This document shows positions 7,613-27,825 of a stretch of DNA of 32,000 nucleotides, piece after piece (within the stretch, counting starts at the first letter, position 1; each line of letters opens with the position of its first letter). Position numbers and translations under genes: made by a program. Origin of the DNA: Candidatus Electronema aureum (GTDB taxonomy: Bacteria > Desulfobacterota > Desulfobulbia > Desulfobulbales > Desulfobulbaceae); NCBI GenBank assembly GCA_004284765.1, contig NQJD01000029.1, positions 1,387-33,386 of the forward strand, in the 5' to 3' direction. Under the pieces are notes generated by a model. The model worked only from the letters and a program-made list of their open reading frames with translations. It was not told the origin of the DNA and ran no database searches.

Positions 7613-7626
7613 TGGGTTGCTTCCAT

Positions 7627-7655
7627 TTGACAGAACGAGATTTTCCTGTCACTAT
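7627..7655 (+). promoter_or_regulatory. Sigma-70 promoter candidate for the hdeA-like gene
   Basis: TTGACA (7627-7632), a 17-nt spacer, then CACTAT (7650-7655). It lies about 55 nt upstream of ATG 7712, which has a GGAGG SD at 7702-7706. Confidence 0.4.
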
Positions 7656-7711
7656 CTTTATACGGTTTAGCCATTTTTCAACATATTCTATCAAACTTCA
7701 CGGAGGATTTT

Positions 7712-8038
7712 ATGCGTAAAACAAAGAAAGCAGCACTCTTAGCCATGCTGCTGTTGTTATCGATAGTTGTCGTGACAGGTGTTCAAGCCGCAGAAAAAGA
7801 GATTAAAAAAGACGAAAAGGTAGATATGGCTACCTACACCTGCGCTGATCTTCTGGCTGAAAACGAAGACGAGGTTGGCATGATTCTATTGTGGGTTGAT
7901 GGCTATTTGAGCGGTAAAACCAACGACACGGTCATCAACATGACCTTTATCGGCGAATTAGCTGAAAACGTCGGGAAAAAATGCGGCGAAAACGGAAAAG
8001 CCAAATTACTCGACGTGGTTAAAGAACTAACGGAATAG
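7712..8038 (+). CDS. HdeA/HdeB-family-like periplasmic protein (signal peptide)
   Basis: 108 aa. The signal peptide is MRKTKKAALLAMLLLLSIVVVTGVQA. The mature part has YTCADLL...LLWVDGYLSG...KKCGENG, i.e. the two-Cys and W.dGy pattern of HdeA-like acid/unfolding chaperones. Strong SD. Confidence 0.55.
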   Translation: MRKTKKAALLAMLLLLSIVVVTGVQAAEKEIKKDEKVDMATYTCADLLAENEDEVGMILLWVDGYLSGKTNDTVINMTFIGELAENVGKKCGENGKAKLLDVVKELTE

Positions 8039-8053
8039 CCCCGAATCGCTAGT

Positions 8054-9391
8054 TCAGCGGAGAATAATTTTGACCGTCTTGCCCGGTATGACCTCCTGAT
8101 TGCCGTAAAAAATCATGCTTGAATATCTGGGCAGAAAAAATCGAGCATAGATGGAACGCCACGTCTCGTCGGACCGCACTTGGTATTTCCAGAGTATGAG
8201 GCCCTCGCGCTGTTCAATCTTGCGTTGATAAAAGGCGGCAGCCTCGCGGCGGTCAGTAAAAAGTCGCACCGAGCTGCCCTTTCTGATGAAGCCGAGGAAA
8301 ATGTGGGGGTTCTGCTCCATTACCACCGGATAATATTTGCGGTTGCCGTAGAACCGCTCGGCAATGTCCCAAGCATTTTCTCCGTCCTTGACTAAATAAG
8401 AGAACGTTCCTCCGCGCTGTATTGGCGCGAAATTCTGCACCTGTTCAGCAGCAGGAGTACCGACTGTTTCCATCGCTATCGACTTCACCCGGTGCTTCCT
8501 GTACTTAGGCGTAAGAACTACAGGCGGCGTTTCCGGTAGAACGGCCAGTTCAGCATTGTTTTCCGATGGAATAGCCTGCGCTACGGCTAAAGCCTGTGGT
8601 TCAGCTACTACCACAGCCGCTTCTACTTCTGCCGGATTTGCTGATTTTTCCTCCGCTGGTGCCAATGGCACTGCTTGCTCCGTTGTTTTTTCAACAGGAA
8701 CTGGTGGTGGCATCTTACTGCCTAACAACTCTACCTCGGCTGTGTCCGGGAGTACCTCCTCTCGAACAACTTTTACAAGTTTTGTCGCCTCGTTCTCAGC
8801 TTCTACCGTTTTTTTCTGATCTACAGGAAGCTCATCCGGCACAAGGGCACGCTCGCTTTTTTCCTTGGCGACAACAGGCACAGCATTCTCCTCTGTATTC
8901 TTGCTGGAAGTCTGCTCGTGGTTTTCGCCTACAAGTTCCTGCTTTGCTGCGACAGTTTCCGTCTCTCGCTCATCCAAGATGCGCACCTGAGCATCAATAT
9001 GAATTTTGCTTTCAGGAGGCAGCACCGGTTCGACAACGTTTTTATTTTCTGGCGCGGATGACAATGACTCTTCGTGCTTTTTCTTCATTGCCGCCCGCTG
9101 TTCCGCCGCCTTGAGTTCGGCTAACTGGTGGTCTAATTCAGACAAACGACTTTTCATGCTCACTGATAGACCAGCAAGGAGCAACAGGACAGCAGTCACA
9201 ATGATCGCGATAGCAACCCAAGGAAAACGACGTTTGGGTAGCAGAGCTGCTGCTGTTTTGGCCGCTGCTGGGTCAGAGAGCGAATCTAAGGCTTGAAAAC
9301 AGGTCAGGTCTGCATCGCACTGAGGGCAGCTGCCGCAGTTCGGCGGTAAGCCGTGCCGTCCACAAACCGGACAGGTGTGCGTCTGACTCAT
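8054..9391 (-). CDS. Zinc-ribbon / single-TM / coiled-coil / low-complexity / LysM-like envelope-anchored protein
   Basis: 445 aa with these elements in order:
- N-terminal CPVC-x8-CGSCPQC.
- TM helix FPWVAIAIIVTAVLLLLAGLSV.
- Coiled coil (SELDHQLAELKAAEQRAA).
- About 200 aa of E/P/A/V-rich spacer.
- Two degenerate LysM-like units (YLVKDGENAWDIAERFYG..., YQVRSDETWRSIYARFF...).
Its start overlaps the Hsp70 gene stop (ATGA, 9388-9391). Confidence 0.7.
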   Translation of the reverse strand: MSQTHTCPVCGRHGLPPNCGSCPQCDADLTCFQALDSLSDPAAAKTAAALLPKRRFPWVAIAIIVTAVLLLLAGLSVSMKSRLSELDHQLAELKAAEQRAAMKKKHEESLSSAPENKNVVEPVLPPESKIHIDAQVRILDERETETVAAKQELVGENHEQTSSKNTEENAVPVVAKEKSERALVPDELPVDQKKTVEAENEATKLVKVVREEVLPDTAEVELLGSKMPPPVPVEKTTEQAVPLAPAEEKSANPAEVEAAVVVAEPQALAVAQAIPSENNAELAVLPETPPVVLTPKYRKHRVKSIAMETVGTPAAEQVQNFAPIQRGGTFSYLVKDGENAWDIAERFYGNRKYYPVVMEQNPHIFLGFIRKGSSVRLFTDRREAAAFYQRKIEQREGLILWKYQVRSDETWRSIYARFFLPRYSSMIFYGNQEVIPGKTVKIILR

Positions 9392-11703: not shown

Positions 11704-11729
11704 ACCGTGTCTGTTCGGAGCAGAGGGGA

Positions 11730-12806
11730 TCAGAGGGCAGAAAGGGTAAAGCTGAAGACGCACCCTCTTTCAGCTTGATTTTCAGCTCGAAGAACACCAC
11801 CATGTAGCTCAATGATTTTTTTCACCACGGCCCAGCCGAGACGGCTATCTTTTCTACTGTCCGCCGGACCTGCTGGATCAGCAAACAAGTGTTCCAGCTC
11901 TTTTTCGCTCAAGCCCGGCCCTTGATCAGCAACCGCCACGCGGACTGCGCTGCCTGCCTGCTCCGCGCTCAAGACAACAACTGAGCCAGCCGGAGAATGC
12001 TTAACCGCGTTGCTCAAGAGATTATCTACCGCTTGTCGAATGCGGCTTGGATCAAGATTGAAAATCGGCAGCGTAGTCAGACGCTCAACAATGACGATTT
12101 GTTTCTTTGCTGCTGCTTGTTGCTGTAGTTGCGCTGCCTGCCGAAGAACTTCTGTGAGCGAGGCAGGCTGCCTGTTGATCTTAAAGGTACCATCACCAAC
12201 GGCGGAAACATCGAGCAAGTCGTTGATTAGGCGCTGCATGGCTGTGGCCGTCTCGTTAATGGCCAGCAGGTGCGTATCTATATTACTGCGCATTTCAAAA
12301 AAACTGCTATCCATCAGCATTTCGGTCATGGTGATAATGTAGCCGAGCGGATTGCGCAAATCATGGGCAGCAATGCGCAAAAAACGATCTTTAATCTTAT
12401 CTAATTCTAACAAGCGGTCGTGTGCCTCAACGAGCCGCCTGCCCACAGAAATTCGGCTGTGCAGTTCACCAATATGCACCGGTTTGCTGAGAAAATCATG
12501 CGCCCCATGATCTAAAGCATGAACCACATCCTCCTTGTCGCTTCTACCAGTGAGTAGAATGGTGTAGATCAGCGGCACAGCACCTTTTTCCTGCGCATTG
12601 AGCCGAGAGCAGATTTCTACCCCATCTAAGCCGGGCATCATCCAGTCTAACACCGCGATTCGGGGTGGTTCTGGGCTGCGCAGGATGGTCATGGCCTCCA
12701 GTCCATCCGCAGCCTCAATCACCTCATAGCCCCAGCGGGCCGCGCAATGCCGGAGCAAAATTCGGGTAGAAAGTTCATCGTCGGCGATCAGTAGTTTCAT
12801 GGACAT
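11730..12806 (-). CDS. Hybrid response-regulator receiver / histidine kinase (REC-HisKA-HATPase_c), no sensor domain
   Basis: REC domain: LLIADDE...VLDWMMPGLDG. H-box: RIAAHDLRNPL. N box: LLSNAVKHS. G boxes: DQGPGL and GWAVVKKIIELHGG. The stop lies 26 nt upstream of the Hsp70 ATG. Confidence 0.85.
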   Translation of the reverse strand: MSMKLLIADDELSTRILLRHCAARWGYEVIEAADGLEAMTILRSPEPPRIAVLDWMMPGLDGVEICSRLNAQEKGAVPLIYTILLTGRSDKEDVVHALDHGAHDFLSKPVHIGELHSRISVGRRLVEAHDRLLELDKIKDRFLRIAAHDLRNPLGYIITMTEMLMDSSFFEMRSNIDTHLLAINETATAMQRLINDLLDVSAVGDGTFKINRQPASLTEVLRQAAQLQQQAAAKKQIVIVERLTTLPIFNLDPSRIRQAVDNLLSNAVKHSPAGSVVVLSAEQAGSAVRVAVADQGPGLSEKELEHLFADPAGPADSRKDSRLGWAVVKKIIELHGGVLRAENQAERGCVFSFTLSAL

Positions 12807-12876: not shown

Positions 12877-13093
12877 CACGAACAGCCAGTAACTGCGAGC
12901 ATCTTCCGCAGATATTTTTCCTGCCAGCAAGTTGCCTGTTGCTCATTTTCAGAGGTATCATATATGATGGCAGCCTAATTTTGGTGTATTATACTCAGAC
13001 AGCGGCGGATTGTATATATTTTGGAAAAAATGAGCCAGCAGCGGCGCATCTTGCGCAGTTATTCAGCCTTTGTTTTTTGGCAAGAACAAAATC

Positions 13094-13690
13094 ATGACCA
13101 CTGATACCGGATTTTTGCTCTACGCCGCTCTGTACCGATTGGCTGTGCTGGCAGTTGGTGCGTTGTCTATTTGGCTGGGCTTTCGTTTGTTCAGCAATGC
13201 CAAGCAAGAGAACAGCTCGGCTGATGGCTCCGTCAGCGCGGAAGGCGGTGGTTTCAAGCTGGCCTTCACCAATTTGCTGCCCGGAACTTATTTCGCGTTG
13301 TTCGGCACGGTGATCATCAGCGTAATGCTATGGAAAGGCGAGCCGCAATTCTTTCAGCAGGAACTCAAGGAGCTGACCAAAGGCGAGAAGACAGTCACGA
13401 CAACAGAATTGCGCACCAGCATAGAACTGGAATGGAAAAAGCTGGATAAGTCCGGCATCACGCTGGCGGAAGCAGCCGAGACTATGGAAACCATTGCCAA
13501 GCTGCTGCGGCAGGAAAACCGCATCGGCGAAGCAGTGGCGATGGCAAAGCTGGCGGCTTTGTACGGCAAAGAAGAAGGCAGGGCGGAGCGTCTTGATTTG
13601 CTGGCTGAACTGCTGCGGGCAAATGGCAATGAGGAGGAGGCAGTGCAAACCGAGCAGGCCGCCGAATCCTTGCGGAGGCCAGAGAAATGA
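13094..13690 (+). CDS. Two-TM membrane protein with helical (TPR-like) C-terminal half, unknown function
   Basis: Hydrophobic helices are LLYAALYRLAVLAVGALSIWLGF and GTYFALFGTVIISVMLW. The C-terminal part is helical and E/A/L-rich. ATG 13094 is preferred over the ORF-track TTG 13070. Its stop overlaps the caspase gene start (ATGA, 13687-13690). Confidence 0.6.
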   Translation: MTTDTGFLLYAALYRLAVLAVGALSIWLGFRLFSNAKQENSSADGSVSAEGGGFKLAFTNLLPGTYFALFGTVIISVMLWKGEPQFFQQELKELTKGEKTVTTTELRTSIELEWKKLDKSGITLAEAAETMETIAKLLRQENRIGEAVAMAKLAALYGKEEGRAERLDLLAELLRANGNEEEAVQTEQAAESLRRPEK

Positions 13691-15090
13691 AGCTGCGCGG
13701 AAGACGCTTGCTGCTGCTGATCGCGCTGATCGCGCTGGCCGTGCTGCCTGCGGCGGCGCAGGCGCAGACAGCTTCCGGCTTTGGCCGTTGTTTTCATGCC
13801 GTGGTGATTGGGTGTCAGAATTACAAGCATCTCAGGACGCTGAAAACGCCGCTGGCTGATGCTAAAGCGGTCGCTAAGGTGCTGAAAGAGCAGTATGGCT
13901 TCACGGTGAACTTGCTGTTGGACAAAAACAGGGACGAAATTATGCTGGCCCTGTCCGAGCTGCGCAAAACCATGACTGCGGAAGAGGACAGCCTGCTGAT
14001 CTACTACGCCGGACACGGCTATTTGGACGAGGCGAGCGGAGCGGGGTACTGGCAGCCCGTGGATGCGGAGAAGGACAACATTGTTTATTGGCTTCCGACC
14101 TCAGAAATCAGCAATTTGCTCAGAGCAATCCGCGTTCGGCACGTGCTGGTGGTGGCAGATTCTTGCTATTCAGGGGAAATCGTCATGCGCAAATCAGAGG
14201 CGCAGCTTCCCGCCGCCGTCAGCAATGACGAATGGCTGCGGCGGATGCAGGCGAAACGGTCGCGCCAAGCCTTGACTTCCGGCCTGAAAGAGCCTGTAAT
14301 GGACGGCGGGGGCGGCGGCCATTCGATCTTCGCCAAGGCGTTGCTGGAGGCATTGCGGGAAAACCGGCAGATACTGGACGGAACAAGACTGTTCAGCCTC
14401 ATCAAAGATCCGGTCTCGAACAACGCCCTGCAACAGCCCGTGTATGACTCCATCCCGATGACCGGGCATGAGATGGGAGATTTTCTGCTGGTGCCGAAGG
14501 AGTTGCAGAAGGGAGGAATTCAGGCGCAGCCGGAGCACAAGGCGGATTTGAGTTTTCTGCAACGCAGCGGCGGTAACAGCGCAGCCACGCTGCCAGAAAA
14601 ACCGCGCCAGAATGCCGACCTACAGAAAGGCAGAACTATTGGGCAATATATTGATTATGGCGACGGCACGATAACTGACACGAAAAGCGGCTTGATGTGG
14701 AAACGCTGTCCAGAAGGTTTATTCGGCGTGAACTGCGAAGAGGGCAAGATTGAAACCTATAAATGGGATGATGTGTTTCAGCGTTTCAAGAATATCGAAT
14801 ACGCAGGCTATTCTGACTGGCGGCTGCCGACCATTGCTGAACTGAAAACTTTGGTATATTGCAGCAATGGAGTTAAAGACAAAGATTACGGTCGCTGCAA
14901 CGAGGGGTCTGAAGAACCGACGATCAATCAACAGGCTTTTCCGAATACTGAGGCAAATTACTTTTGGTCCGGGTCGCCGCATGCCGACAATTCGGACCTT
15001 GCGTGGTACGTCCATTTTGCCTATGGCAGTTCCTCCATCAGCAACCGCGTCAACAGCGATGCGGTACGTCTGGTGCGCGGCGGATGGTAG
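13687..15090 (+). CDS. Secreted caspase-family (peptidase C14) protein fused to a C-terminal DUF1566 (Lcl C-terminal, C-type-lectin-like) domain
   Basis: Sec signal peptide: MKLRGRRLLLLIALIALAVLPAAAQA. Caspase His/Cys dyad contexts: LLIYYAGHGY and VLVVADSCYSGE. The C-terminal 150 aa carry TDTKSGLMWKRC...YSDWRLPTIAELKTL...YFWSGSP...AWYVHFAYG...AVRLVRGG, the DUF1566 pattern. Confidence 0.85.
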   Translation: MKLRGRRLLLLIALIALAVLPAAAQAQTASGFGRCFHAVVIGCQNYKHLRTLKTPLADAKAVAKVLKEQYGFTVNLLLDKNRDEIMLALSELRKTMTAEEDSLLIYYAGHGYLDEASGAGYWQPVDAEKDNIVYWLPTSEISNLLRAIRVRHVLVVADSCYSGEIVMRKSEAQLPAAVSNDEWLRRMQAKRSRQALTSGLKEPVMDGGGGGHSIFAKALLEALRENRQILDGTRLFSLIKDPVSNNALQQPVYDSIPMTGHEMGDFLLVPKELQKGGIQAQPEHKADLSFLQRSGGNSAATLPEKPRQNADLQKGRTIGQYIDYGDGTITDTKSGLMWKRCPEGLFGVNCEEGKIETYKWDDVFQRFKNIEYAGYSDWRLPTIAELKTLVYCSNGVKDKDYGRCNEGSEEPTINQQAFPNTEANYFWSGSPHADNSDLAWYVHFAYGSSSISNRVNSDAVRLVRGGW

Positions 15091-15747: not shown

Positions 15748-17481
15748 ATGACCAACCGAGCCATACTGCTCCGGCTGCGCGACGTGCTGCGGCCTTACAG
15801 CGGCAAGCTGCTCATCGCCATGGCCGCGATGATCGTAGTCGCCCTGTTCAACGCCGCCCAAGCCTACATGGTGCAACCGCTGCTGGACAAGATTTTTTAT
15901 GAAAAGAACGCTGCTTGGCTGACCGCGCTGCCGCTGGCCCTGCTGGCGATTTTTTTCGTCAAAGGGGTGTTTTATTTCTTCTATTCCTACCTGCTCGAAT
16001 GGGTTGGGCAGTCGGTGATCAAAGACCTGCGCAACAGCCTCTACGGCCATCTCCATGAGCTGTCGATGGGCTTTTTTTACAAGAATTCCACCGGCGAACT
16101 GATCTCGCGGATTATGAACGACGTGGCCATGCTCCAAGGCACGGTCTCGCACGCCCTGATCTACGTCCTGCGCGATTTTTTCAGCGTGGCCGGGCTGCTG
16201 GTGGTGATTTTTTACATGGACTGGCGGCTGGCCTTGGTCTCGCTTGTTTTCATTCCGATGGCCGCAGTGCCGATTGTGGTTTTCGGCAAGAAATTCCGCC
16301 GCATCAGCACCCGCTACCAGCAGGGCATGGGCGAGGCGAGCAATTTCCTCAACGAGACCATCCGGGGTGTCCGCATCGTCAAGGCCTTTTGCGCCGAGGA
16401 GCAAGAAAAACACCGCTTTGCGGCCAAGATGCAGCAGCTTTTCGACACCCTGATGAGCGAGACCCGCTACCGCAGCCTTGCCCATCCACTGATTGAATTT
16501 CTCGGCGGCATCGGCATGGCCCTGATCATCTGGTTTGGCGGCAGCGAGGTGCTGAAGGGCAACGCCACGCCCGGCACCTTCATGTCTTTTCTCACCGCTT
16601 TGGTCATGCTCTATGAGCCGATCAAGGGCGTGAGCAAGATCAATTCAACGGTGCAGTCGGGCATGGCTGGCGCGGCCCGCATCTTCGCGCTCTTGGACAC
16701 CGAGCCGGAAATCCGCGAGAAAGCGCAGCCGGTCGAGCTGCCGCCCTTCAGCCGCCAGATTGAATTCCGCAAGGTCAGCTTCGCCTATCAGCCCGGCGAG
16801 CTGGTGCTGCGCGATGTCAGCCTGACAATTGCGCGGGGCGAGGTGGTGGCCTTGGTCGGGCCGTCGGGCGGCGGCAAAAGCTCCTTGGCCAGCCTGCTGC
16901 CGCGCTTTCACGAGGTCACTGACGGCGCAGTCCTGCTCGACGGCCACGATCTGCGCGACCTCAGCCTGCGTTCGCTGCGCAGCCAGATTGCCATTGTCAC
17001 CCAGCAGACGATCCTGTTTAATGACACCGTGCGCAGCAACATCGCCTACGGCAGCCCGGATTGCACTGAGGAAGAGATCCGCCGGGCCGCCGCCGCTGCC
17101 TTTGCCTTGGATTTCATCGAAGCCTTTCCGCAGGGCTTTGACACCGTGATCGGCGAGTCTGGCGTGCGACTCTCCGGCGGCCAGCAGCAGCGGCTGTCCA
17201 TTGCCAGAGCGATCCTCAAGAACGCGCCGATCCTTATTTTAGATGAAGCCACGTCCGCGCTCGACACCGAATCTGAGCGCAAGGTGCAGCAGGCCCTCGA
17301 CAATCTGATGAAAAACCGCACCACCTTGGTCATTGCCCACCGCCTTTCGACCATCAAGAACGCCGACCGCATCGTGGTCATGCAGGACGGACGCATTGCC
17401 GAGGAAGGCGACCACGACAGCCTGCTCCGGCGCGGCGGCATCTACGAGGGGCTGCACAGCTTGCAGCACGCCGCCCGATGA
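15748..17481 (+). CDS. msbA: Lipid A export ABC transporter, fused permease/ATPase (MsbA-type)
   Basis: 577 aa with an N-terminal six-helix TMD. Walker A: GPSGGGKSS. ABC signature: LSGGQQQRLSIARA. Walker B: ILILDEATSALD. It heads an LPS-core operon, joined to the next gene by an ATGA overlap. Confidence 0.8.
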   Translation: MTNRAILLRLRDVLRPYSGKLLIAMAAMIVVALFNAAQAYMVQPLLDKIFYEKNAAWLTALPLALLAIFFVKGVFYFFYSYLLEWVGQSVIKDLRNSLYGHLHELSMGFFYKNSTGELISRIMNDVAMLQGTVSHALIYVLRDFFSVAGLLVVIFYMDWRLALVSLVFIPMAAVPIVVFGKKFRRISTRYQQGMGEASNFLNETIRGVRIVKAFCAEEQEKHRFAAKMQQLFDTLMSETRYRSLAHPLIEFLGGIGMALIIWFGGSEVLKGNATPGTFMSFLTALVMLYEPIKGVSKINSTVQSGMAGAARIFALLDTEPEIREKAQPVELPPFSRQIEFRKVSFAYQPGELVLRDVSLTIARGEVVALVGPSGGGKSSLASLLPRFHEVTDGAVLLDGHDLRDLSLRSLRSQIAIVTQQTILFNDTVRSNIAYGSPDCTEEEIRRAAAAAFALDFIEAFPQGFDTVIGESGVRLSGGQQQRLSIARAILKNAPILILDEATSALDTESERKVQQALDNLMKNRTTLVIAHRLSTIKNADRIVVMQDGRIAEEGDHDSLLRRGGIYEGLHSLQHAAR

Positions 17482-19946
17482 GCAGGCTCCGCAGCGGCGC
17501 AGGCCGGGCCAATGTCTGGCTGCCGGGCCTGCTCGCCTTTGCCCTGCCGCTTTCCACCTCGGCAGTGTCGGCAGTCGCCCTGCTAATCCTCCTGCTCTGG
17601 CTGATCGAAGGGAATTTCCTGCTCAAGCTGGCCGAGACCCTCTTCACGCCAGTCGCGGCGACAGTGCTGGGATACTTGGCCCTGCTCTGCCTCGGCCTGC
17701 TCTGGACAGCAAACCCGGCGGACGGCCTCAGCGTCCTGCAAAGCCACTGGAAGATTGCCCTGCTGCCGGTCTTCCTCACCGCTGTCCGCCACGAACGGCG
17801 CGCCTTCTACCTGAGCTGCTTCATCGCCGGGATGAGCGCGGCCATGCTCCTCACCTTCTTGGTCTGGCTCGGCCTTGTCCAGTACGCCGATGTCAGCCCG
17901 GCGCATCTCACGCCCAAGACCTTTCACGTCGTCTACAACCCTCTGCTGGCCTTCGCCATCTACCTGACCTTGCACAAGGCAGTCTGGGAGGAGCCAAGGC
18001 GGCGGGCGCGGGCGGGCCTCTTCGCGCTGGCCGGGCTGATGAGCGTCAACATGTTTATGACCGAGGGCCGCACCGGGCAGGCCGCCTTCTTCGTCCTCCT
18101 CAGCCTCTTTCTCCTGCAAGTCTTTGGCCGGAAGCGCGTGCGGGCGGTACTCCTCCTCTGTCTGCTGCTGCCTGCGGGCATCGCTGCCGGCTATGTAGCC
18201 AGCCCGGTCTTTCAGCAGCGGGTTGACTTAGCCCTGAGCGAAGCCTCCGGCTTTCACGACAACCCCAACACCTCAGTGGGTCTGCGCCTTCAGTTCTGCC
18301 AGAACGCGCTTGCCCTCATCCGCCAGCAGCCCTGCCTCGGCGTGGGCACCGGCGATTTCAAAGCCGCCTACGGTCTGGTCAACCAGCAGCGCAGCCCGCA
18401 CTGCGTCAGCACCGACAACCCGCACAACCAGTACCTCTTGAGCGCGGCGCTGCTCGGCCTGCCCGGCCTGCTCATCCTGCTGCTGGTCTTCTTCCTCATG
18501 CTGCGGCAGGCCCGCTCTGAGCAGGAGGACAGCCTCTGCCGTGCGCGTTTCGCCTTCCCGCTCTTCTTCGCAGTCATCATGCTGGCGGAGTCCTATCTCA
18601 AGGTCTATCAGACCGCCTTCCTCTTCGCCCTGATGACCGCTGTGCTGTACAAAAAAAAGCCACTGCCGCAGGCCGAGGGCCGCAGCTGGCTGATTCTCTC
18701 CTACCGGGCCAACATCCCCGGTTCAGCCTGCTCGCAGCATCTGGACGACCGGCTGCCGCACTTGCAGGCCCAAGGCATTGAACCGGTGCTGCTCACCGGC
18801 CCGGCTGGTCTTGCCCACCCGACATGGCGGCACTTCCGCACTGTCAGCCTCGCGCCCTCCGGCCTCCGCTTCGAGCTGCGCCATTACCTCCGACGCCGAC
18901 TGCGCCACCGCTGGCAGTTCAAGCTGGTTGAGACCCTGCTCCTCCTGCCGGTGCTGCCCTTCTACCTGCTGGAGAAGATCGTCGTCAATCTGGAGAGCGA
19001 ATGGTCCTGGGGCCTGCTTGCCTCGCTGCGCGGCCTGCTGCTCTGCCGCCAGCTCAGGCCGGAGCTGGTTTACTCGACCGGCGGCTCGGCCTCGGCCCAT
19101 GTCGCGGGCCTGCTGATCAAGCGCTGGACTGGCATCCGCTGGATCGCTGAGACCCAAGACCCGCTCGTGCACGACCAAGGCTGGCGACGCAGCCGTCTCG
19201 CTCTGCTGCTGTATACGAATCTGGAGCGGCGCATCTGCCAGCAAGCCGACCTCTTCGTCTTTCTCGTCGGCGCGGCGCTGGAGCACTGCCGCCAGCGCAC
19301 GGGCGGCGGCAGGCTGGCTGTAGTCTATCCCGGCGCGGAGCCGTCCTGGTTCGGGCAGCAGGAGCTATACAGCAAAGGCGGCCGCTGCTCCTTCGCGCAC
19401 TTCGGCTCGCTCTCCGGCACGCGCAACCTGGCAGTCTTCTTCCAGGCACTGGAGCAGGTGGTCAGCGGCAGGCCGGAGCTGCGCGGCAGGGCGCAGGTGG
19501 ACGTGTACGGCTCCTTTGACAGCCTGTCGGAGCGGGAGATGCAACGCCTGCGCCTGCACGACCTCGTCAGGGTGCATGGGCCGGTGCCGCGAGAGGAGGC
19601 CATAGCCCGAATGCAGCAGGCAGACTGCCTGCTCTTAGTGCAGAACATCATCTACTTCTCCTGCGAGACCATCCCGTCCAAGGTCTATGAGTACCTGCTC
19701 ACAGGCCGCCCGATCCTCGGCCTGCTGCATAATAATAAGGAGCTGGCCGCTATGCTGCGGGACAGCGGCCATCGCGCCACGCCTGCCGATGACGTGCAGG
19801 CCACAGCCGCAGCCATCGCCGCGATCTTGGACGACTGGGCTGCGGATAAGCTGACAGCCGCTATGGCGGTGGACAGGCCCTGGACTGTCGAGGCGGCGGT
19901 GCGCAAGCTGATCTGCCTGAGCGAGGGCTGTAGCTCCTGCGCATGA
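17478..19946 (+). CDS. Fusion protein: O-antigen-ligase-like (Wzy_C/WaaL-type) polytopic membrane domain + C-terminal GT-B glycosyltransferase-like domain
   Basis: 822 aa. The first ~400 aa are multi-TM and carry the NPHNQYLLSAALLGLPGLL motif typical of O-antigen ligase family loops. The second half is soluble with GT-B features (WLILSYRAN..., GSLSGTRNL, ETIPSKVYEYLLTGRPILGL). ATGA overlaps occur at both ends. Confidence 0.7.
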   Translation: MSRLRSGAGRANVWLPGLLAFALPLSTSAVSAVALLILLLWLIEGNFLLKLAETLFTPVAATVLGYLALLCLGLLWTANPADGLSVLQSHWKIALLPVFLTAVRHERRAFYLSCFIAGMSAAMLLTFLVWLGLVQYADVSPAHLTPKTFHVVYNPLLAFAIYLTLHKAVWEEPRRRARAGLFALAGLMSVNMFMTEGRTGQAAFFVLLSLFLLQVFGRKRVRAVLLLCLLLPAGIAAGYVASPVFQQRVDLALSEASGFHDNPNTSVGLRLQFCQNALALIRQQPCLGVGTGDFKAAYGLVNQQRSPHCVSTDNPHNQYLLSAALLGLPGLLILLLVFFLMLRQARSEQEDSLCRARFAFPLFFAVIMLAESYLKVYQTAFLFALMTAVLYKKKPLPQAEGRSWLILSYRANIPGSACSQHLDDRLPHLQAQGIEPVLLTGPAGLAHPTWRHFRTVSLAPSGLRFELRHYLRRRLRHRWQFKLVETLLLLPVLPFYLLEKIVVNLESEWSWGLLASLRGLLLCRQLRPELVYSTGGSASAHVAGLLIKRWTGIRWIAETQDPLVHDQGWRRSRLALLLYTNLERRICQQADLFVFLVGAALEHCRQRTGGGRLAVVYPGAEPSWFGQQELYSKGGRCSFAHFGSLSGTRNLAVFFQALEQVVSGRPELRGRAQVDVYGSFDSLSEREMQRLRLHDLVRVHGPVPREEAIARMQQADCLLLVQNIIYFSCETIPSKVYEYLLTGRPILGLLHNNKELAAMLRDSGHRATPADDVQATAAAIAAILDDWAADKLTAAMAVDRPWTVEAAVRKLICLSEGCSSCA

Positions 19947-21010
19947 AGCACCGCCGCATTCTCATTGTCAAGCCCAGCTCGCTCGGCGACATCGTCCACA
20001 CGCTGCCGCTGGCACACGCGCTCAAACGCTGCTGGCCGGACTGCCGCATCGGCTGGATCGTCCAGCAGGTCTTCGCGCCTTTGCTGGCGGCGGACGCGAG
20101 CATAGACCGCATCTACCCCATCCACATCCCCTCGACCAGCGAGCCGCAAGCGGGCCGCTCCGCCTGGCTGACCGCCTTCAGCGCGACCCTGAAGACCCTG
20201 CGCGGCCTGCGCCGCCAGTTGCAGGCGGAGCCGTATGACCTCATCCTTGACCTCCACGCCTCGCTGCGCAGCGGGCTGCTGGGCCGCTGCAATCCGGGCG
20301 GCCTGCGCCTTGGTTTCGCCGATGCCAAAGAGCTGAACACGCTCTTTCAGCAGCAGCTTGTCGCTGTCCCGGCAGACGTGCGGCACGCGCAGGATAAGAA
20401 CCTGCTTTTCTGCCAGCAGCTTGGTCTCAGTGTGACCGCAGCGGATTTCCACCTCCGCTGCGGCGCGGCAGACCGCGAGGCGGCGCAGGCCTTCTTGCGC
20501 GAGACGGACGCGGCTGGGAAGAGGGTCGTTCACGCCAACCCGGCGGCCCGCTGGCAGACCAAATTCTGGCCGCAGGAACGCTGGGCCGAGCTGGCCGACC
20601 GCCTGCAAGGCCAAGGGCTGGCCGTGGTCTTCGGCGGCAGCGGGCAGGACGCGGCCTATTTAGACGGCATTGTCCGCCTGATGCGCAGCCCGACTGTCAT
20701 CGCCGCTGGCAGGCTCAGTCTGCCGCAGGCCGCAGCCCTGATCGCCCAATCCGCCCTGCACATCGGCTTGGATTCCGGCCCAATGCACATCGCCGCCCTG
20801 GCTGGCGTGCCGGTCGCCGCGCTCTTCGGCCCGACGCACCCGGAACGCGTTGGCCCCTACGGCGTGCAGCACCGCATCATCCGCGCCGAAAGCCTGTCCT
20901 GCTTGGAGTGCCGCAAACGCAGCTGCTCCCATCTTTCCTGCATGAGAGGCATTTCTGTGCCAATGGTCTATGAAGCCGCGCTGTCTTTGCTTGAATTATC
21001 TGAGTCATGA
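19943..21010 (+). CDS. ADP-heptose:LPS heptosyltransferase (GT9; N-terminus WaaC-like)
   Basis: 355 aa. RILIVKPSSLGDIVHTLPLAHALK resembles the WaaC/RfaC N-terminus. Also present: GSGQD, DSGPMHIAAALGVP-like (DSGPMHIAALAGVP), and LFGPTHP. Confidence 0.8.
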   Translation: MKHRRILIVKPSSLGDIVHTLPLAHALKRCWPDCRIGWIVQQVFAPLLAADASIDRIYPIHIPSTSEPQAGRSAWLTAFSATLKTLRGLRRQLQAEPYDLILDLHASLRSGLLGRCNPGGLRLGFADAKELNTLFQQQLVAVPADVRHAQDKNLLFCQQLGLSVTAADFHLRCGAADREAAQAFLRETDAAGKRVVHANPAARWQTKFWPQERWAELADRLQGQGLAVVFGGSGQDAAYLDGIVRLMRSPTVIAAGRLSLPQAAALIAQSALHIGLDSGPMHIAALAGVPVAALFGPTHPERVGPYGVQHRIIRAESLSCLECRKRSCSHLSCMRGISVPMVYEAALSLLELSES

Positions 21011-21898: not shown

Positions 21899-22156
21899 AT
21901 GAGCAGTGTGATGTGGATACTTTTTTTGGCCCTACTGGCCCTGCTGGTGTTGTCGCTGCTTTGGCTGATCTGGAAGCTGAGAAATTTTTCCCAGTCCCAA
22001 AATCAGACCGTGCTGGACGACCGGCTTTTACAAGCCATGCTCGGCGATGAGGTGCTGTCGAAAAAGGTGAAAAAGGCTTTGGTCAAAAAATCCGGGCGGA
22101 TCGCTGATACTGACGAAGAGGACGACGGGCAAGAGCAACCTCAAAAAAGCGATTAA
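21899..22156 (+). CDS. Small N-terminally anchored membrane protein with acidic tail, unknown function
   Basis: 85 aa with a GGGAGG SD 8 nt upstream. TM helix: WILFLALLALLVLSLLWLIW. The C-terminus is DTDEEDDGQEQPQKSD. Confidence 0.45.
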   Translation: MSSVMWILFLALLALLVLSLLWLIWKLRNFSQSQNQTVLDDRLLQAMLGDEVLSKKVKKALVKKSGRIADTDEEDDGQEQPQKSD

Positions 22157-22164: not shown

Positions 22165-24288
22165 TTAGGCTCCCAGTGCGACTCGAAAGCCAGCTCGAAT
22201 AATCCGCAGGCCCGGCGAGAGGCAGAAGCGAAAATAGGAGCTGGCGAATTTGGCACTACTGTCCCATGAGCCGCCCCGTAGGACGCGGCCTGCACCCTGT
22301 TCTGCTCCGGCGGGATTTCGCACTGGATAGACGGTGTAACTGTCCTTGATATACCAATCTGCACACCATTCCCAAACATTACCGTGCATGTCATATAAAC
22401 CCCACGCATTGGGCTGCTTACCACCTACGGGCTGGGTTTTCCGCTCGGCATTGGTAACGTGCCAAGCATAACGGTCGAGCTGCTCGTCATCATCGCCAAA
22501 GCAATAGGCCGCACTACTTCCGGCTCGGCAGGCGTATTCCCACTCAGCCTCGGTGGGTAAATGATAATTTTTGCCAGTTTGCCGGGTTAGCCATTCACAA
22601 TAATCAGCGGCATCCTGCCAGCTCACGTTGATTACCGGTCGCTGGTCGCGGCCCCAGCCCTCGTCTCTGGGTCTCGCCCGACCTGTGGACATACAGAATT
22701 CGTCAAATTCAGCAAACGTGATCAGAAAACGGCTGATACCAAAGCTGTCCAATTCCACTTCATGGGCAGGATGCGTGTTATCCGGCCCTTGGCCTTGAAT
22801 GTCGCCCATGCGGAAACGTCCGCCCGGCAACATAATCATCTCTGGCCCTATCTGCTGCTTGCTACTTTTGCGGATGAAAGTATCCTGCCAAGAAAATAGA
22901 GTGCCGTAGCAATCAACATAACGATGGAGATTGAAGCCGGAAAAATCTAATCTGCCGAGATATGGGCTTATGCCATCAGCCAATTCAAGAAAGCGCAAGA
23001 GCATGTCCGTGGCCCGTACTAAGAAGGGCAGTGGCTGGCGGTCGTTGACCAAGGCATAGGCGAGCAAAAATTCTCGAAACGTGGCATGGCTGAAGCGGAA
23101 AGCCCGCTCCGAGGTTTTGCTGAGAAGGGAACACTGATCAGGTTCAAATCGATCCAACCAGCAGGTGTTGGCATCCTCACAGAGCAGCTCCCACAAATCT
23201 TTTTCTGCGATTTCCTGCCGATTATGTTGCTCCATCCAACGGGCCACCCGCACACAGGCACTGAACATTTCCACCCGCTCCGGCAGTCGGGCGCAACCAG
23301 AATGTTGCTCTTGGAGAATGCGTAGTTTGCGATCTAACCAGCGTTGCAGCAGCGTTTCATAGATGGTGTAGAGATTCCAATATCGCCGCTCGTCCGCTGC
23401 TTCCAGTAAGATTTCAATTTGCTGAATCAGCAAAGGGCAATGCTGTAGGTCATCGATTTGATCAAGGAGCTGAAATGCCCGCGTTCGCTGCCGGGCTGCG
23501 CCAAAGCTCTGTAAGCCCAGATAGCTGCTACCGCTCCAAGACAACTTTTTGCGAATCAGTGCATGTACTTGCCGACCGTCAAGAGGTGAGAGATGCAAAA
23601 CCGGGCAGTTGTAACCGGCTAGCCCCCGAATGAGTAATTGTCCGGCAGGGCTGGACAGCACGTCAGGAAAAAAATGGCTGCGGCAGGTGATGATTACCCT
23701 GCGGAAACCCCAGCTCGCATCGAGTAGGTCGAGCAACCGGGCATGAACTCGGCCTCGTGCAACGCGGTCTTCGTTGAGGCCGTCGAGGAGCAGTACGGTA
23801 TCGGACTTTCCGTCAATAGCTGCAATTTGGGCCAGCGTGTCCCCGCCGCCGAGGCGGAACAGTTCGCAGCGGCAGCCAGGTGGCCAAAATCCGGCTAACT
23901 GCATCAGCTTGATCATAAACAAAAGGGAACTCTTGCCCATGCCTGCGTCTGCGAGCAGGAACATCTGATGGCTACCATCACGATTCCGAGGCTGACCGCC
24001 GTCCAAAAAACAGTTGAGCAGTGAGAAGGCCGACTGCCGAGGTACCGGAGCATGAAGCCCGCGCCGCCGATCTGCCGGACTGCGCTCCTGAAGATGTGGC
24101 TCGGCGTAAAATTTGACTAATTCTTCAGGATCACCGAATTCATCTCGGAGCAAATTCAGTTCTTGCGCCCGGTCTCCGGCAAGGCGGCATAGCCGCTTGA
24201 GCAGCTGCCCGGCCAGCGCGGAGCTGACAAAGGATAAGGGTTCCATCCCCAGTCTCACGGTTGCCTCCTTATGGATTTCGCTTTCCAT
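22165..24288 (-). CDS. NACHT-like (STAND) P-loop NTPase fused to a C-terminal FGE-sulfatase (SUMF1/formylglycine-generating-enzyme-like) domain
   Basis: 707 aa. Walker A: LLADAGMGKSSLL. Walker B: VLLLDGLNED. NACHT-type RVIITCRSHFFP is also present. A helical middle follows. The C-terminal ~240 aa carry MIMLPGGRFRMGD, LPTEAEWEYACRAG, YDMHGNVWEWC and RVLRGGSW...GFRVA. There is no signal peptide. An AAGGAGG inside the first codons suggests GTG 24258 or ATG 24246 as alternative starts. Confidence 0.85.
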   Translation of the reverse strand: MESEIHKEATVRLGMEPLSFVSSALAGQLLKRLCRLAGDRAQELNLLRDEFGDPEELVKFYAEPHLQERSPADRRRGLHAPVPRQSAFSLLNCFLDGGQPRNRDGSHQMFLLADAGMGKSSLLFMIKLMQLAGFWPPGCRCELFRLGGGDTLAQIAAIDGKSDTVLLLDGLNEDRVARGRVHARLLDLLDASWGFRRVIITCRSHFFPDVLSSPAGQLLIRGLAGYNCPVLHLSPLDGRQVHALIRKKLSWSGSSYLGLQSFGAARQRTRAFQLLDQIDDLQHCPLLIQQIEILLEAADERRYWNLYTIYETLLQRWLDRKLRILQEQHSGCARLPERVEMFSACVRVARWMEQHNRQEIAEKDLWELLCEDANTCWLDRFEPDQCSLLSKTSERAFRFSHATFREFLLAYALVNDRQPLPFLVRATDMLLRFLELADGISPYLGRLDFSGFNLHRYVDCYGTLFSWQDTFIRKSSKQQIGPEMIMLPGGRFRMGDIQGQGPDNTHPAHEVELDSFGISRFLITFAEFDEFCMSTGRARPRDEGWGRDQRPVINVSWQDAADYCEWLTRQTGKNYHLPTEAEWEYACRAGSSAAYCFGDDDEQLDRYAWHVTNAERKTQPVGGKQPNAWGLYDMHGNVWEWCADWYIKDSYTVYPVRNPAGAEQGAGRVLRGGSWDSSAKFASSYFRFCLSPGLRIIRAGFRVALGA

Positions 24289-25426: not shown

Positions 25427-25677
25427 GCGCACAGCCGCCGGACACCGGCTTTTCCCAAATTTGCTTCGGCCTAAACCGGGAGCTTGACGAGTGCTCGCTT
25501 GCTCTCTTTCTCCGCTTGTTCAGCCGCGAGGAGCTGATGCACGCGCTAATTCCCCGCCTTGCTGATGAAGAAATCAGCAGCTTGGTTGATAATCTCACCG
25601 GCATTTTGCATAAACATTTGGAGGAAAAGGAATATCACGAACTTTTCCTCGGTGATTATGAGCATCATCATTCATAA
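25423..25677 (+). CDS. Small cytoplasmic protein, unknown function
   Basis: 84 aa counted from ATG 25423, which overlaps the yjbQ stop (ATGA). The sequence is helical and acidic, ending in EHHHS. No motif was recognised. Confidence 0.45.
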   Translation: MSAQPPDTGFSQICFGLNRELDECSLALFLRLFSREELMHALIPRLADEEISSLVDNLTGILHKHLEEKEYHELFLGDYEHHHS

Positions 25678-25704
25678 TCTACGCCACGTAATTAATAATT
25701 ATTG

Positions 25705-26847
25705 ATGAAAAAAACATTTATACCTTTTAACTGGCCTTACATGACAGGGAAGGAACTTTCTTGGATTGCAGAGGCGCACTTAAATGGAATTCTTGCTGGA
25801 GATGGTCCGTTCACTCAACGATGTAACGCTTGGTTAGAAAACCATACAGGCTGCTACAAAGCTTTATTGACTCATTCGTGTACAGCAGCTTTGGAAATGG
25901 CCGCGTTGTTGATAGATACTAAGCCTGGCGATGAAATTATTATGCCGTCATACACTTTTGTATCGACAGCAAATGCTTTTGTGTTGCGAGGAGGTATCCC
26001 TGTCTTTGTTGATATTCGTGAAGACACATTGAATATAAATGAAAGTTTGATCGAATCAGCTATCACAGATCGAACGAGGGCAATTGTACCTGTCCATTAC
26101 GCAGGAGTATCTTGTGAAATGGATACTATCATGTCGCTTGCTCAATATCATCAATTGAAAGTTATTGAGGATGCTGCTCAGGGCGTGATGGCTACATACA
26201 AAGGAAAAACACTCGGCACAATTGGAGATTTTGGTGCATATAGCTTTCATGAAACAAAAAATGTAATTTCTGGAGAAGGCGGAGCATTGTTAGTAAACGA
26301 TAAAAATTTATCTTTACGCGCTGAGATCATCAGAGAAAAAGGAACTGACCGTAGCCGCTTTTTTCGGGGAGAAGTTGATAAATACACATGGCAGGAAGCA
26401 GGTTCTTCTTTTTTGCCAGGTGAACTGACTGCCGCTTTTTTGTGGGCTCAATTAGAAGAAGCAGCTGTCATTACGGCAAGAAGGTTATCTCTTTGGGATA
26501 AATATCATGCTACATTTGCATCTATAGAGCGCGCTGGTCATGTACGTCGTCCAGTCGTTCCTGAAGAATGTGGTCATAATGCGCACATGTATTATCTCCT
26601 GTTGCGAGATATTCATGAAAGGACTTCCTTTATTGAGGCGATGAAACAAGATGGCGTTAATTGCGTCTTTCATTATGTACCTCTGCATTCTGCACCAATG
26701 GGATTAGCTTCTGGACGTACTGATGGTCTTTTGACTGTAACAAATGCAATATCAGAACGGCTCGTCAGGCTTCCGTTATGGCTTGGGTTAGAACAGCAAC
26801 AGGAACGTGTCATTGAAGCTGTAGAACGTTTTTTTATAGGTCGTTGA
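25705..26847 (+). CDS. dTDP-4-amino-4,6-dideoxy-sugar aminotransferase (DegT/DnrJ/EryC1 family, WecE-like)
   Basis: IPFNWPYMTGKELSWIAEAHLNGILAGDGPFTQRCNAWLENHTG parallels the WecE N-terminus. SCTAALEMAA, IMPSYTFVSTANAF and FHETKNVISGEGGAL (PLP-Lys region) are also present. The gene and both flanks are conspicuously AT-rich. Confidence 0.8.
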   Translation: MKKTFIPFNWPYMTGKELSWIAEAHLNGILAGDGPFTQRCNAWLENHTGCYKALLTHSCTAALEMAALLIDTKPGDEIIMPSYTFVSTANAFVLRGGIPVFVDIREDTLNINESLIESAITDRTRAIVPVHYAGVSCEMDTIMSLAQYHQLKVIEDAAQGVMATYKGKTLGTIGDFGAYSFHETKNVISGEGGALLVNDKNLSLRAEIIREKGTDRSRFFRGEVDKYTWQEAGSSFLPGELTAAFLWAQLEEAAVITARRLSLWDKYHATFASIERAGHVRRPVVPEECGHNAHMYYLLLRDIHERTSFIEAMKQDGVNCVFHYVPLHSAPMGLASGRTDGLLTVTNAISERLVRLPLWLGLEQQQERVIEAVERFFIGR

Positions 26848-26934
26848 TACAAAATAAATGGAGTGTTGGATAGAGCTTTAACTTGCGTCATTTCTGTTTG
26901 ATTATTTTTGTTCTGTTCTGCATTTGAGAAAAAC

Positions 26935-27825
26935 ATGTGCGTCGATCTCCACACTCATTCCGTTTATTCCGACGGTACTGCCACTCCGTCCCAACTGATC
27001 AGCATGGCTGTAGCAGGCGGCCTGACCGGTTTTGCTTTAACTGATCACGACACGGTAGAGGGCGTGCAGGAGGCGATGGTGCTGGGTGAGGAACAGGGAA
27101 TTGCTGTCATCAGCGGACTGGAACTCAGTGCCCGCCACGGCGAGGGCTGTATTCACATCCTTGGTTACGGCGTAGATGTAGAAAATTTACAATTAGCCGA
27201 AGGATTGGCCCAACTCCAAGAAGGTCGCACCGAGCGCAATTTGAAAATTCTGGCCAAACTGAACGGTTTGGGCATCGCCATTACCTCTGAGGAAACCGAA
27301 CGACTTTCCGGTTGCGGTCAGACCGGTAGGCCACACATCGCCCGTCTGCTGCTGGCTAAGGGCTATGTGCAGACGTTGAACCAAGCGTTCACGCTCTACC
27401 TTGGCAGAAACAAAGCGGCTTGGTGCGACCGATTTGCCTATTCAGCAGCGGAAACTATTGCTATAATACACGAAGCTGGCGGCGTGGCAGTGTTAGCTCA
27501 TCCCGGCATCATTGATCCAGAACTGAAAGCGCAGCCGCAGTTGATCCGTGAATTAGCCGAGCGGCATTTAGACGGAGTAGAAATTTACTACCCCGGCCAT
27601 AATTTCAAAATGATTCAGCTTTTCAGCGGGCTGGCCAAGCAGCACCGTCTGCTGGTCACTGGCGGCAGCGATTATCATGGCGACAGCCGGATCAAGGGAT
27701 TAGCTGGCAAGGCAACCGGCTTTTTTCCGCCTGATTCAATTATGGAACAAATCCGCGACCGCCTGCGCGTTTCTCGAACCCCGACCCCGGAAGTATTACA
27801 CCATGCAGACCATACTTGTTGTTGA
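26935..27825 (+). CDS. PHP-domain phosphoesterase (TrpH/YciV-like)
   Basis: MCVDLHTHSVYSDGTATPSQLI, GFALTDHDTVEG, VAVLAHPG and GGSDYHG are PHP metal-binding motifs. ATG 26935 is preferred over the ORF-track TTG 26908. Confidence 0.8.
   Translation: MCVDLHTHSVYSDGTATPSQLISMAVAGGLTGFALTDHDTVEGVQEAMVLGEEQGIAVISGLELSARHGEGCIHILGYGVDVENLQLAEGLAQLQEGRTERNLKILAKLNGLGIAITSEETERLSGCGQTGRPHIARLLLAKGYVQTLNQAFTLYLGRNKAAWCDRFAYSAAETIAIIHEAGGVAVLAHPGIIDPELKAQPQLIRELAERHLDGVEIYYPGHNFKMIQLFSGLAKQHRLLVTGGSDYHGDSRIKGLAGKATGFFPPDSIMEQIRDRLRVSRTPTPEVLHHADHTCC

Follow-up and report, generated by a model that had tools for sequence, protein, structure and literature searches.

The gene analysed here lies on the minus strand of a 32,000-nt stretch of contig NQJD01000029.1 of Candidatus Electronema aureum, a cable bacterium (we call this whole stretch the window). 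An open reading frame (ORF) with an ATG start runs there uninterrupted over 22165..24288 (-) and encodes 707 amino acids (aa), in which a short helical extension is followed by a nucleoside triphosphatase (NTPase) with a winged helix and by a C-terminal domain that belongs to the formylglycine-generating enzyme (FGE)-sulfatase family. The original prediction, which we followed up, had described the protein as a NACHT-like NTPase in which the FGE domain is the sensor of a STAND (signal transduction ATPase with numerous domains) switch; the ORF and all the motifs quoted there were found, each at its place. As regards the start, the orthologues and one independent gene call on an identical sequence (L005) begin 10 codons downstream of the ATG, at a GTG at 24258 (V11), and because of this agreement the GTG is probably the true start, giving a protein of 697 aa; a second public record (P0193) takes the upstream ATG and 707 aa. 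Residue numbers in this text count from the ATG at 24288. No signal-like or transmembrane (TM) segment is present in the protein, whose 19-residue hydropathy peak is 1.2 and falls at the P-loop. Since the gene is divergent from a lipoprotein gene at 24567 and convergent with an 85-aa ORF ending at 22156, it must, judged by this geometry, be monocistronic and transcribed alone, in agreement with the arrangement first described (a monocistronic gene convergent with a small membrane-protein gene).

The nucleotide-binding domain (NBD) was placed at aa 61-250 (23539..24108, -) by the motif YAEPHLQERSP, Walker A, Walker B, sensor-1 and the fold matches described below. Precisely, Walker A is GMGKS (within ADAGMGKS; aa 116-120, 23929-23943), Walker B is LLLDGLNED (aa 166-174, 23767-23793) and sensor-1 is RVIITCRS (aa 197-204, 23677-23700). 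Helical domain 1, the winged helix and helical domain 2 follow at aa 251-470 (22879..23538, -), delimited by motif conservation and by the alignments to animal NOD-like receptors (NLRs), with the GxP-like CPLLIQ at 23422-23439 and the winged-helix histidine motif FRFSH at 23086-23100. In the family alignment the STAND motif set is complete, its columns being invariant or nearly so: G116, G118, K119, L168, D169, P285, F399 and H401 are invariant in 28 relatives, and most of them, G116, G118 and K119 included, still are in 66 distant relatives; the Walker B residues D169, E173 and D174 are invariant across the relatives aligned; R203 of sensor-1 (in FRRVIITCR) is kept in at least 90% of relatives; the GxP-like motif reads R-P285-x-L-L and the winged-helix motif F-R-F399-S-H401-x-[ST]-x-x-E-F-L, in its longer form FRFSHxTxxEFLLA. 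As the key residues are invariant across the 28 relatives, the motifs are not due to chance.

We modelled aa 1-470 with AlphaFold2 (AF2) on 14 family sequences (mean pLDDT 82.7, pTM 0.85). The top 44 Foldseek matches of this model in the PDB were all NACHT modules of animal NLRs, the best being NOD2 (5irm, E=1.3e-11), then NLRC4 (4kxf), NLRP3, NAIP5, NLRP7 and NLRP9; the alignments were 370-530 columns long and spanned the NBD and the helical and winged-helix domains, and ORC, RuvB and SAMD9 ranked below all the NLR matches. From its predicted fold, taken with the motif set, the protein is assigned to the NACHT clade of STAND NTPases, in line with the NACHT-like NTPase of the original prediction. 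The structure model was needed for this assignment because the sequence profile of aa 1-470 gave only sub-threshold matches against the PDB (a G-alpha P-loop region and the 'FSHMTFQEFFAA' region of the NLRP3 winged helix). As for the curated hidden Markov models (HMMs) of this module, the window protein passes no threshold: it matches neither PF05729 (NACHT) nor PF20720 (nSTAND3) at E<=1, and its similarity to the NACHT antiphage model EruA of NCBIfam is a weak 23.5 bits. Weak Pfam matches appear among its relatives, to nSTAND3 in 16/28 close ones and 27/66 distant ones and to NACHT in 10/28 close ones (best E=3.7e-4). A distant relative, P0094, reaches 29.7 bits for NACHT, above the 26.7 cut-off, and P0087, with 30.2 bits for nSTAND3, is the only relative seen above the 27.2-bit gathering threshold. 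The relatives thus resemble both families, which they match over the P-loop to sensor-1; the clade of the window protein differs from them in having a conserved N-terminal module of its own and a large size (1,521 clusters). A separate observation concerns two Electrothrix orthologues (L017 2294-4411 and L085 6001-8115), in which Walker A is G-x-G-K-G-S, with Gly at the Mg-coordinating Ser/Thr position; this raises the question of whether they retain nucleotide hydrolysis.

The N-terminal region is smaller than first thought. Whereas a separate module of ~90 aa before the P-loop had been proposed, residues ~61-100 are part of the NBD conserved throughout the clade: they carry the motif Y-[VI]-E-P-x-x-Q-x-x-N-P (clade form Y-[VI]-E-P-x-C-Q-x-x-N-P-A-D), and in the AF2 model a beta-strand at 65-67 precedes the P-loop strand. 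The extension proper (aa ~17-60, 24109..24240, -, delimited by the AF2 model and the starts of the profile matches) is formed by two or three helices alone (aa ~23-59; 23-34, 39-51 and 54-59 in the model, with pLDDT ~90 over aa 21-70), which are conserved in the clade, have no enzymatic fold and correspond to no known domain in Pfam or PADLOC. The adaptor or effector role suggested for this part was only in part upheld: the segment is too small for an enzymatic effector and no adaptor partner was found, while its helices (aa ~17-60) are still a candidate output or adaptor element. In fact, an HMM of aa 15-62 run against the six-frame ORFs of the window and of 89 loci (with flanks of 6-10 kb on each side) matched NTPase proteins only. 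A membrane-helix N-terminus was considered and rejected, as a TM-like segment occurs in the first 80 aa of only 4/149 clade representatives and is absent from the window protein; a pore-forming N-terminus is thus pure speculation.

The C-terminal domain, at aa 482-704 (22177..22845, -), has the C-type-lectin fold of the FGE-sulfatase family and matches PF03781 over model positions 3-254 of 255 (E=1.7e-54), with the motifs HGNVWEWC (aa 635-642), RVLRGGSW (aa 668-675) and GFRVA (aa 700-704). Its closest sequence relatives in the PDB are PvdO (5hha, E~3e-30), the FGE of S. coelicolor (6muj/2q17) and TvpA (2y3c, E~1e-29), which in Treponema is the variable protein of a diversity-generating retroelement (DGR); bacterial and human FGEs are among the best solved ones. 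The window 'GGSWDSSAKFASSY' aligns to 'GGSYLCHDSYCNRY' and 'GGSFLCHESYCNRY' of the S. coelicolor/T. curvata FGE, and in this alignment both copper-binding cysteines of the FGE catalytic motif GGS[YF]LCH[DE]SYCNRY are replaced, by S677 and A682. No sulfatase gene is present in the 32-kb window, as judged by Pfam on 20 window proteins and by the precomputed Pfam labels for 27.8-30.9 kb. With both catalytic cysteines lost and no sulfatase gene in the window, the domain is predicted to be catalytically dead and the protein not to be a maturation enzyme. This agrees with what had been proposed for the FGE domain and for the lack of a nearby sulfatase gene, and it answers the check, suggested at that time, of whether the Cys pair of a true maturation enzyme is retained. 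The fold is thus shared with FGE/SUMF1, PvdO and TvpA; unlike FGE/SUMF1, the window domain has lost the catalytic Cys pair and is joined to an NTPase, in a cytoplasmic protein with no sulfatase partner; PvdO also lacks that pair, and the likeness to TvpA consists in the relation to DGR variable proteins. The public names of these proteins ('SUMF1/EgtB/PvdO family nonheme iron enzyme', 'formylglycine-generating enzyme') are therefore misleading for the NACHT-FGE family.

An exhaustive profile search with aa 1-470 returned 10,489 clusters at E<=1e-3 and 1,521 clusters (50% identity) at E<=1e-30. As the matches mostly begin at target residue 2-12, the N-terminal region, the NTPase and the winged helix form one module. 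What follows this module changes: among 66 representatives, pentapeptide repeats were found at the C-terminus in 47/66 and an FGE-sulfatase domain in 18/66, with an occasional WD40 or TPR, and such changing C-terminal binding domains are typical of STAND sensors. Rare members have an added N-terminal domain (TIR in P0071, DUF4062 in P0087). Beyond cable bacteria its members are spread among Thiosymbion, Methylococcaceae, Competibacteraceae, Thiotrichales, Verrucomicrobia, Aminicenantes, Acidobacteria and Nannocystaceae, and clustering of the neighbours at 79 loci gave no universal partner gene.

In the Competibacteraceae and Methylococcaceae relatives, a small protein is encoded within ~70 bp after the gene, with a reverse transcriptase (RT) next in line; in the loci L037, L038 and L043 Pfam identifies the two as bAvd (PF22296) and RVT_1, and in L043 bAvd stands between the target and the RT. 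In the same three loci a copy of the FGE domain's 3' end follows the RT gene, as a template repeat (TR), and the mismatches between the TR and the variable region (VR) lie at template adenines in 14/14 cases for L038, 19/21 for L037 and 11/16 for L043. The VR of these DGR-targeted relatives encodes R-x-L-R-G-G-S-W...G-F-R-L-A, which maps to aa 668-704 of the window protein. The latter aligns with the DGR target of L037 end to end (39% identity, E=6e-143), and for this reason we regard it as a full-length homologue of the candidate antigen sensors that combine STAND and C-type lectin (CLec) domains (Kaur et al. 2021, PMC8195603; Dore et al. 2024, PMC10907252). In these homologues the C-terminal face of the lectin-fold domain is, by the position of the VR, the predicted ligand-binding surface. 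Because full-length homologues are DGR targets with the VR on this face, a ligand sensor is the best reading of the C-terminal domain of the window protein as well. The sensor role originally proposed was thus supported and can now be specified as that of a non-catalytic domain homologous to DGR targets.

Close homologues of aa 1-480 come nearly all from cable bacteria (Ca. Electronema and Ca. Electrothrix), where an architecture of ~690 aa is common to them. We distinguished group A, made up of the window gene's orthologues (50-77% N-terminal identity), and group B, its paralogues (~45% N-terminal identity). Each of six Electronema species representatives has one gene of each group, the Electrothrix genomes have at least two copies each, and the genome bearing the window also encodes a group-B protein (P0029). 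In group A the sensor is the best conserved part: across P0002-P0017 the FGE domain is 70-85% identical to that of the window protein, compared with 54-77% in the NBD and 43-78% in the part with the helical domains and the winged helix.

The equivalent of the DGR variable region is aa 676-699 (22192..22263, -), between the RGGSW and GFRVA anchors and at the position of the VR in the DGR-targeted relatives; by analogy with them it is presumed to be the ligand-contact surface. Its mean pairwise identity is 80% in group A and 34% in group B, the corresponding values being 100% and 82% for the VR anchors, 74% and 71% for the FGE body, and 62% and 80% for the NBD. Among eight 90% clusters of group A, 0-8% of VR columns vary, which is below the NTPase part (1-~470) wherever the cluster varies at all. 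In a group-B cluster (P0022/P0219/P0220), 50% of VR columns vary vs 0.5% in the FGE body, and two Electrothrix group-B strains differ at 18/72 VR nucleotides vs 15/2,016 elsewhere, all 18 differences being at codon positions 1 or 2 (Electrothrix group-B genes: L007 6001-8088, L018 905-2992 and L004 8001-12652; tandem pairs). The binding surface of the window gene is, hence, constant ('frozen') in the cable-bacterial lineage. Some group-B paralogues (L028 6001-7410, 469 aa; P0027; P0030) have no FGE domain and end after the winged-helix/helical region, at 469-528 aa.

Diversification of group B by a DGR is strongly suggested by this pattern and by the cassettes found in cable bacteria. A first predicted TR pattern had no match in the metagenomes; a second template, predicted from the group-B VRs, matched the metagenome contig L089, in which a complete cassette at 5077-10718 comprises a Roc-COR GTPase and a first FGE target, then an HRDC accessory gene with the RT and the TR, and another FGE target after these. 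The L089 TR differs from its own VRs only at adenines (16/16 and 15/15), and from the Electrothrix group-B VRs at template adenines in 17/22 and 19/25 cases. RTs 70-74% identical to that of L089 are present in Electrothrix sp. AR3, Electrothrix sp. GW3-4 and Electronema sp. JC, and the TR/VR pairs have adenine mismatches at 10/10 and 14/17 positions in Ca. Electronema sp. JC (L090 7710-11500) and at 12/12 and 13/13 in Ca. Electrothrix sp. GW3-4 (L091 8695-15269). The cable-bacterial cassettes have in common an FGE-domain target (LRR-FGE in L090), the HRDC accessory gene, the RT, the TR and a second FGE target, with the Roc-COR GTPase adjoining the cassette in L089 and L091. Judged by the adenine-specific pattern of these pairs, cable bacteria carry active DGRs. 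The cognate TR of the Electrothrix group-B VRs was not recovered, the nearest templates being 68-70% (L091) and 78-80% (L089) identical.

No such machinery accompanies the window gene. A search of the window for direct and inverted repeats gave none involving 22165-22400, four cable-bacterial loci contained no template repeat, and neither Avd nor RT was found in the window or in 34 cable-bacterial loci. The cable-bacterial TRs (L090, L091) share only 45-49% identity with the group-A VR equivalent, from which they differ at all four bases. The VR equivalent aligns gap-free and codon for codon with the TRs of L037 and L089, the VR scaffold RGGSW...R...P..R...GFR being present, and it has NNC/NNT codons at 8/11 template AAC/AAT positions; this is compatible with descent of the window gene from a former DGR target.

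As to the locus, every Electronema species has a full-length group-A gene with an unbroken frame, and this gene adjoins a divergent trio of lipoprotein, YjbQ and orf108 in 6/6 Electronema representatives as well as in the window strain. On the other flank, the window strain has lipopolysaccharide (LPS) genes (GT2, GT9 and a Wzy-glycosyltransferase), found at this position in none of the other six Electronema; the Electrothrix neighbourhood of the orthologue differs from that in Electronema. The window gene is vertically inherited in Electronema and Electrothrix and syntenic within Electronema, and it is not defence-island cargo. The island-like context initially attributed to it was not borne out, given flanks of LPS and housekeeping genes, the lack of a PADLOC match for the protein and the synteny in six Electronema, and PADLOC, one of the checks then suggested, assigned neither the protein nor any of ten neighbouring proteins to a defence system. 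The group-B paralogues lie beside a PIN toxin-antitoxin pair.

The architecture had been treated as unusual; it is, in fact, an already published category. STAND NTPases with an FGE-type ('FGS') C-terminus are widespread, with N-terminal effector-associated domains (EADs) or effectors, and are often linked to DGRs (Kaur et al. 2021, PMC8195603); bacterial NACHT proteins have two C-termini of the antigen-receptor type, FGS being one (Kibby et al., bioRxiv 10.1101/2022.07.19.500537); DGR clade 5D diversifies NACHT/nSTAND1-CLec targets, many of which have uncharacterised N-terminal extensions and none of which has been experimentally tested (Dore et al. 2024, PMC10907252); and FGE-sulfatase-like sensors are listed among defence-associated STANDs (Nature 2026, PMC13581612). 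NACHT/STAND-FGS proteins have been interpreted as putative antigen receptors of multicellular bacteria and as conflict systems (PMC8195603, PMC10907252). Papers linking cable bacteria to STAND NTPases or DGRs were not found in the literature searched.

With the STAND NTPase-FGS receptors the window protein shares the domain order (from a short N-terminal part through a winged-helix-bearing NACHT-type NTPase to the C-terminal FGE domain), the end-to-end homology to the L037 protein, which has an RT and an adenine-specific TR downstream, and a multicellular filamentous host with several paralogues per genome. It differs from them in that the gene has no acting DGR and a constant VR equivalent, in that the protein has no recognisable N-terminal effector, EAD adaptor or linked effector gene, and in being a conserved, syntenic gene rather than a variable locus. 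As for the bNACHT and Avs/AVAST proteins, NLR-like defence proteins of bacteria with experimental validation, the likeness lies in a NACHT-clade STAND core with the motifs and fold of animal NLRs, encoded by a single gene with a C-terminal sensor; however, the validated ones carry a nuclease, protease, TIR or other effector or a short SNaCT C-terminus, none of which is in the window protein, whose sensor has a lectin fold instead of TPR-like repeats and which has neither a PADLOC model match nor a defence-island context. The window gene is thus set apart by the combination of no effector, no DGR, a constant surface, the status of a core gene and a hypervariable paralogue alongside.

The explanation that we favour, with a probability of roughly 0.6, is that the protein is a cytoplasmic, NLR-like, ATP-driven switch with a non-catalytic lectin-fold ligand sensor, that is, a NACHT-FGS conflict or cell-death receptor of fixed specificity, from a family enriched in multicellular bacteria. 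By analogy with characterised STANDs and NLRs, the resting protein would be an ADP-bound, autoinhibited monomer; one specific, evolutionarily constant ligand would bind the lectin-fold surface (aa ~676-699) and release the autoinhibition, and nucleotide exchange at the Walker A/B site would then lead to oligomerisation. The output would pass either by way of the short, conserved helices at the N-terminus or by way of an unlinked partner, possible forms being oligomerised N-terminal helices, recruitment of the unlinked partner or stoichiometric sequestration of the ligand. Support for signalling in defence or cell death comes from the relatives with TIR or DUF4062, from those that DGRs target and from the literature.

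Several results weigh against this explanation. The window protein has no Pfam match outside the FGE domain, even at E<=1, and its Walker B is DGLNE, with N172 in place of the first acidic residue, instead of the D[GAS]hDE of the NACHT Walker B signature hhhhD[GAS]hDE (Kibby et al., bioRxiv 10.1101/2022.07.19.500537), a signature that the family consensus LLLD[AG]LDED (DALDE) does fit. PADLOC gave no match for the protein, and for ten neighbouring proteins its sole match was a caspase 7 kb away; a defence-island context is absent. As no recognisable effector domain was found in the protein, nor a partner with the N-terminal module in its flanks, the output step of the proposed mechanism is unsupported. 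A sensor more conserved than the NTPase and a genus-wide vertical inheritance are, furthermore, atypical of phage-sensing NLRs and fit a non-immune ligand equally well, and the CLec domains on STAND proteins remain uncharacterised (PMC10907252).

Among the alternatives, a genuine formylglycine-generating or SUMF1/EgtB/PvdO-type enzyme gated by the fused NTPase would agree with the strong PF03781 match, with the 'SUMF1/EgtB/PvdO family nonheme iron enzyme' of the source annotations and with a partial NCBIfam similarity to PvdO and EgtB, but it is very improbable: both copper-binding FGE cysteines are replaced, the NCBIfam enzyme scores are far under the cut-offs (PvdO 122 vs 500 bits, EgtB 83 vs 360), the closest full-length homologues are DGR variable proteins, and sulfatase, pyoverdine and ergothioneine genes are not among the neighbours scanned. 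EgtB and OvoA enzymes need an N-terminal iron-binding domain, and a domain of this type is not evident in the protein, for which Pfam shows no further domain. We consider it just as improbable that the gene is a decaying relic of a former receptor, since its frame is unbroken over the full length in all Electronema species, its catalytic motifs are all invariant and its identity across genera is high, above all in the sensor; what speaks for decay is the lack of an effector and of a DGR, the Walker A GKG instead of GK[ST] in the orthologues L017 and L085, and the loss of the FGE domain in some paralogues (L028 with 469 aa; P0027 and P0030). Diversification in trans, which would make the window gene itself a current DGR target, could draw on the active cassettes of cable bacteria, one of which, in Electronema sp. 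JC, lies ~28 kb from the group-A orthologue, on the codon-for-codon alignment with the templates and its NNC/NNT codons, and on the fact that DGRs can have remote targets (PMC8195603). With a VR equivalent that is nearly invariant between species and within 90% clusters, cable-bacterial TRs only 45-49% identical to it and mismatched at all four bases, and no TR, Avd or RT found in the window or in 34 cable-bacterial loci, it is extremely unlikely.

A more substantial alternative, which we regard as possible if rather doubtful, is a non-immune, lineage-specific regulatory STAND, whose fixed lectin-fold domain would sense an endogenous ligand, such as a glycan of the envelope or one related to LPS, a metabolite or a protein specific to cable bacteria, and so regulate a housekeeping or developmental process of the filament. 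The vertical inheritance in both cable-bacterial genera, the lipoprotein-YjbQ-orf108 synteny kept in Electronema, and a sensor that is the best-conserved domain, with an invariant VR equivalent, are all in its favour, as are the lack of defence neighbours and of a PADLOC match for the protein and the fact that 391/589 STAND clades are not defence-associated (Nature 2026, PMC13581612). The LPS genes on the other flank would suit it too, but these are strain-specific and not conserved neighbours. Moreover, a regulatory output domain, for DNA binding or otherwise, is lacking in the protein, the clade relatives that bear TIR or DUF4062 or are targeted by DGRs point to conflict functions, and the clade's scatter over many phyla beyond cable bacteria is a pattern typical of mobile conflict genes.

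As a speculation that we put forward very tentatively, the two groups of genes could form a matched receptor pair, both members being NLR-like with a lectin fold. The paralogue, variable in a DGR-like manner, would be its 'adaptive-like' member, and the window gene a frozen core 'innate' member for a constant ligand (a self-derived danger signal or a kin-recognition signal), sacrificing or sealing off a damaged or infected cell of the conductive, centimetre-long filament by means of its conserved N-terminal helices and not of an enzyme. NACHT-FGS proteins have been proposed as antigen receptors of an immune-like system in multicellular bacteria, and none has been characterised; a single-gene copy with a constant surface, conserved in two genera, is a more tractable entry to them than the hypervariable versions, as it should have one definable ligand, and it would allow a test of signalling by an effector-less bacterial NLR. 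Cable bacteria, at the same time, join the multicellular lineages with DGRs and DGR-like hypervariable NLR paralogues.

The other genes of the window are LpxK, LpxC, an HD protein, a hybrid-cluster protein, three unknowns, an Hsp70-like protein, a hybrid kinase and a caspase-Lcl_C protein; an MsbA-like ABC exporter, a Wzy-glycosyltransferase, GT9, GT2, a glycine-zipper lipoprotein and YjbQ; and DegT, PHP, a sigma-54 activator, NAD kinase and P5C reductase. The base composition is a mosaic on a background of ~52% GC: a block of 64-67% GC within 16000-21000 holds the MsbA-like ABC exporter, the Wzy-glycosyltransferase fusion and the GT9 heptosyltransferase, and a stretch of 41% GC within 25500-27000 holds the DegT aminotransferase. 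This mosaic, together with the absence of the LPS genes at the same position in the other six Electronema, suggests that the O-antigen/LPS modules next to the window gene have been horizontally exchanged.

At 13070-15090 (+) the window encodes a 467-aa caspase (Peptidase_C14) whose C-terminal domain is of the Lcl type; before it comes a 206-aa ORF without a family match. The caspase gene was considered as an effector acting in trans and rejected, as it is absent from the ±8-kb flanks of the Electronema sp. JC orthologue (L001). On the minus strand, a series of genes at 5921-12806 includes a hybrid response-regulator/histidine kinase (11730-12806) and the 791-aa Hsp70-like protein (9388-11763), after which come two ORFs, 445 aa (8054-9391) and 563 aa (5921-7612) long, for which neither Pfam at E<=1e-5 nor PADLOC gave a match; the series may be an uncharacterised system centred on Hsp70. 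Finally, the 85-aa ORF at 21899-22156 (+), 8 bp from the window gene, has an N-terminal TM helix, an acidic tail and no family match, and a 63%-identical copy of it lies ~4.5 kb upstream of a group-B paralogue in another Electronema-related genome (L029 1243-1482).

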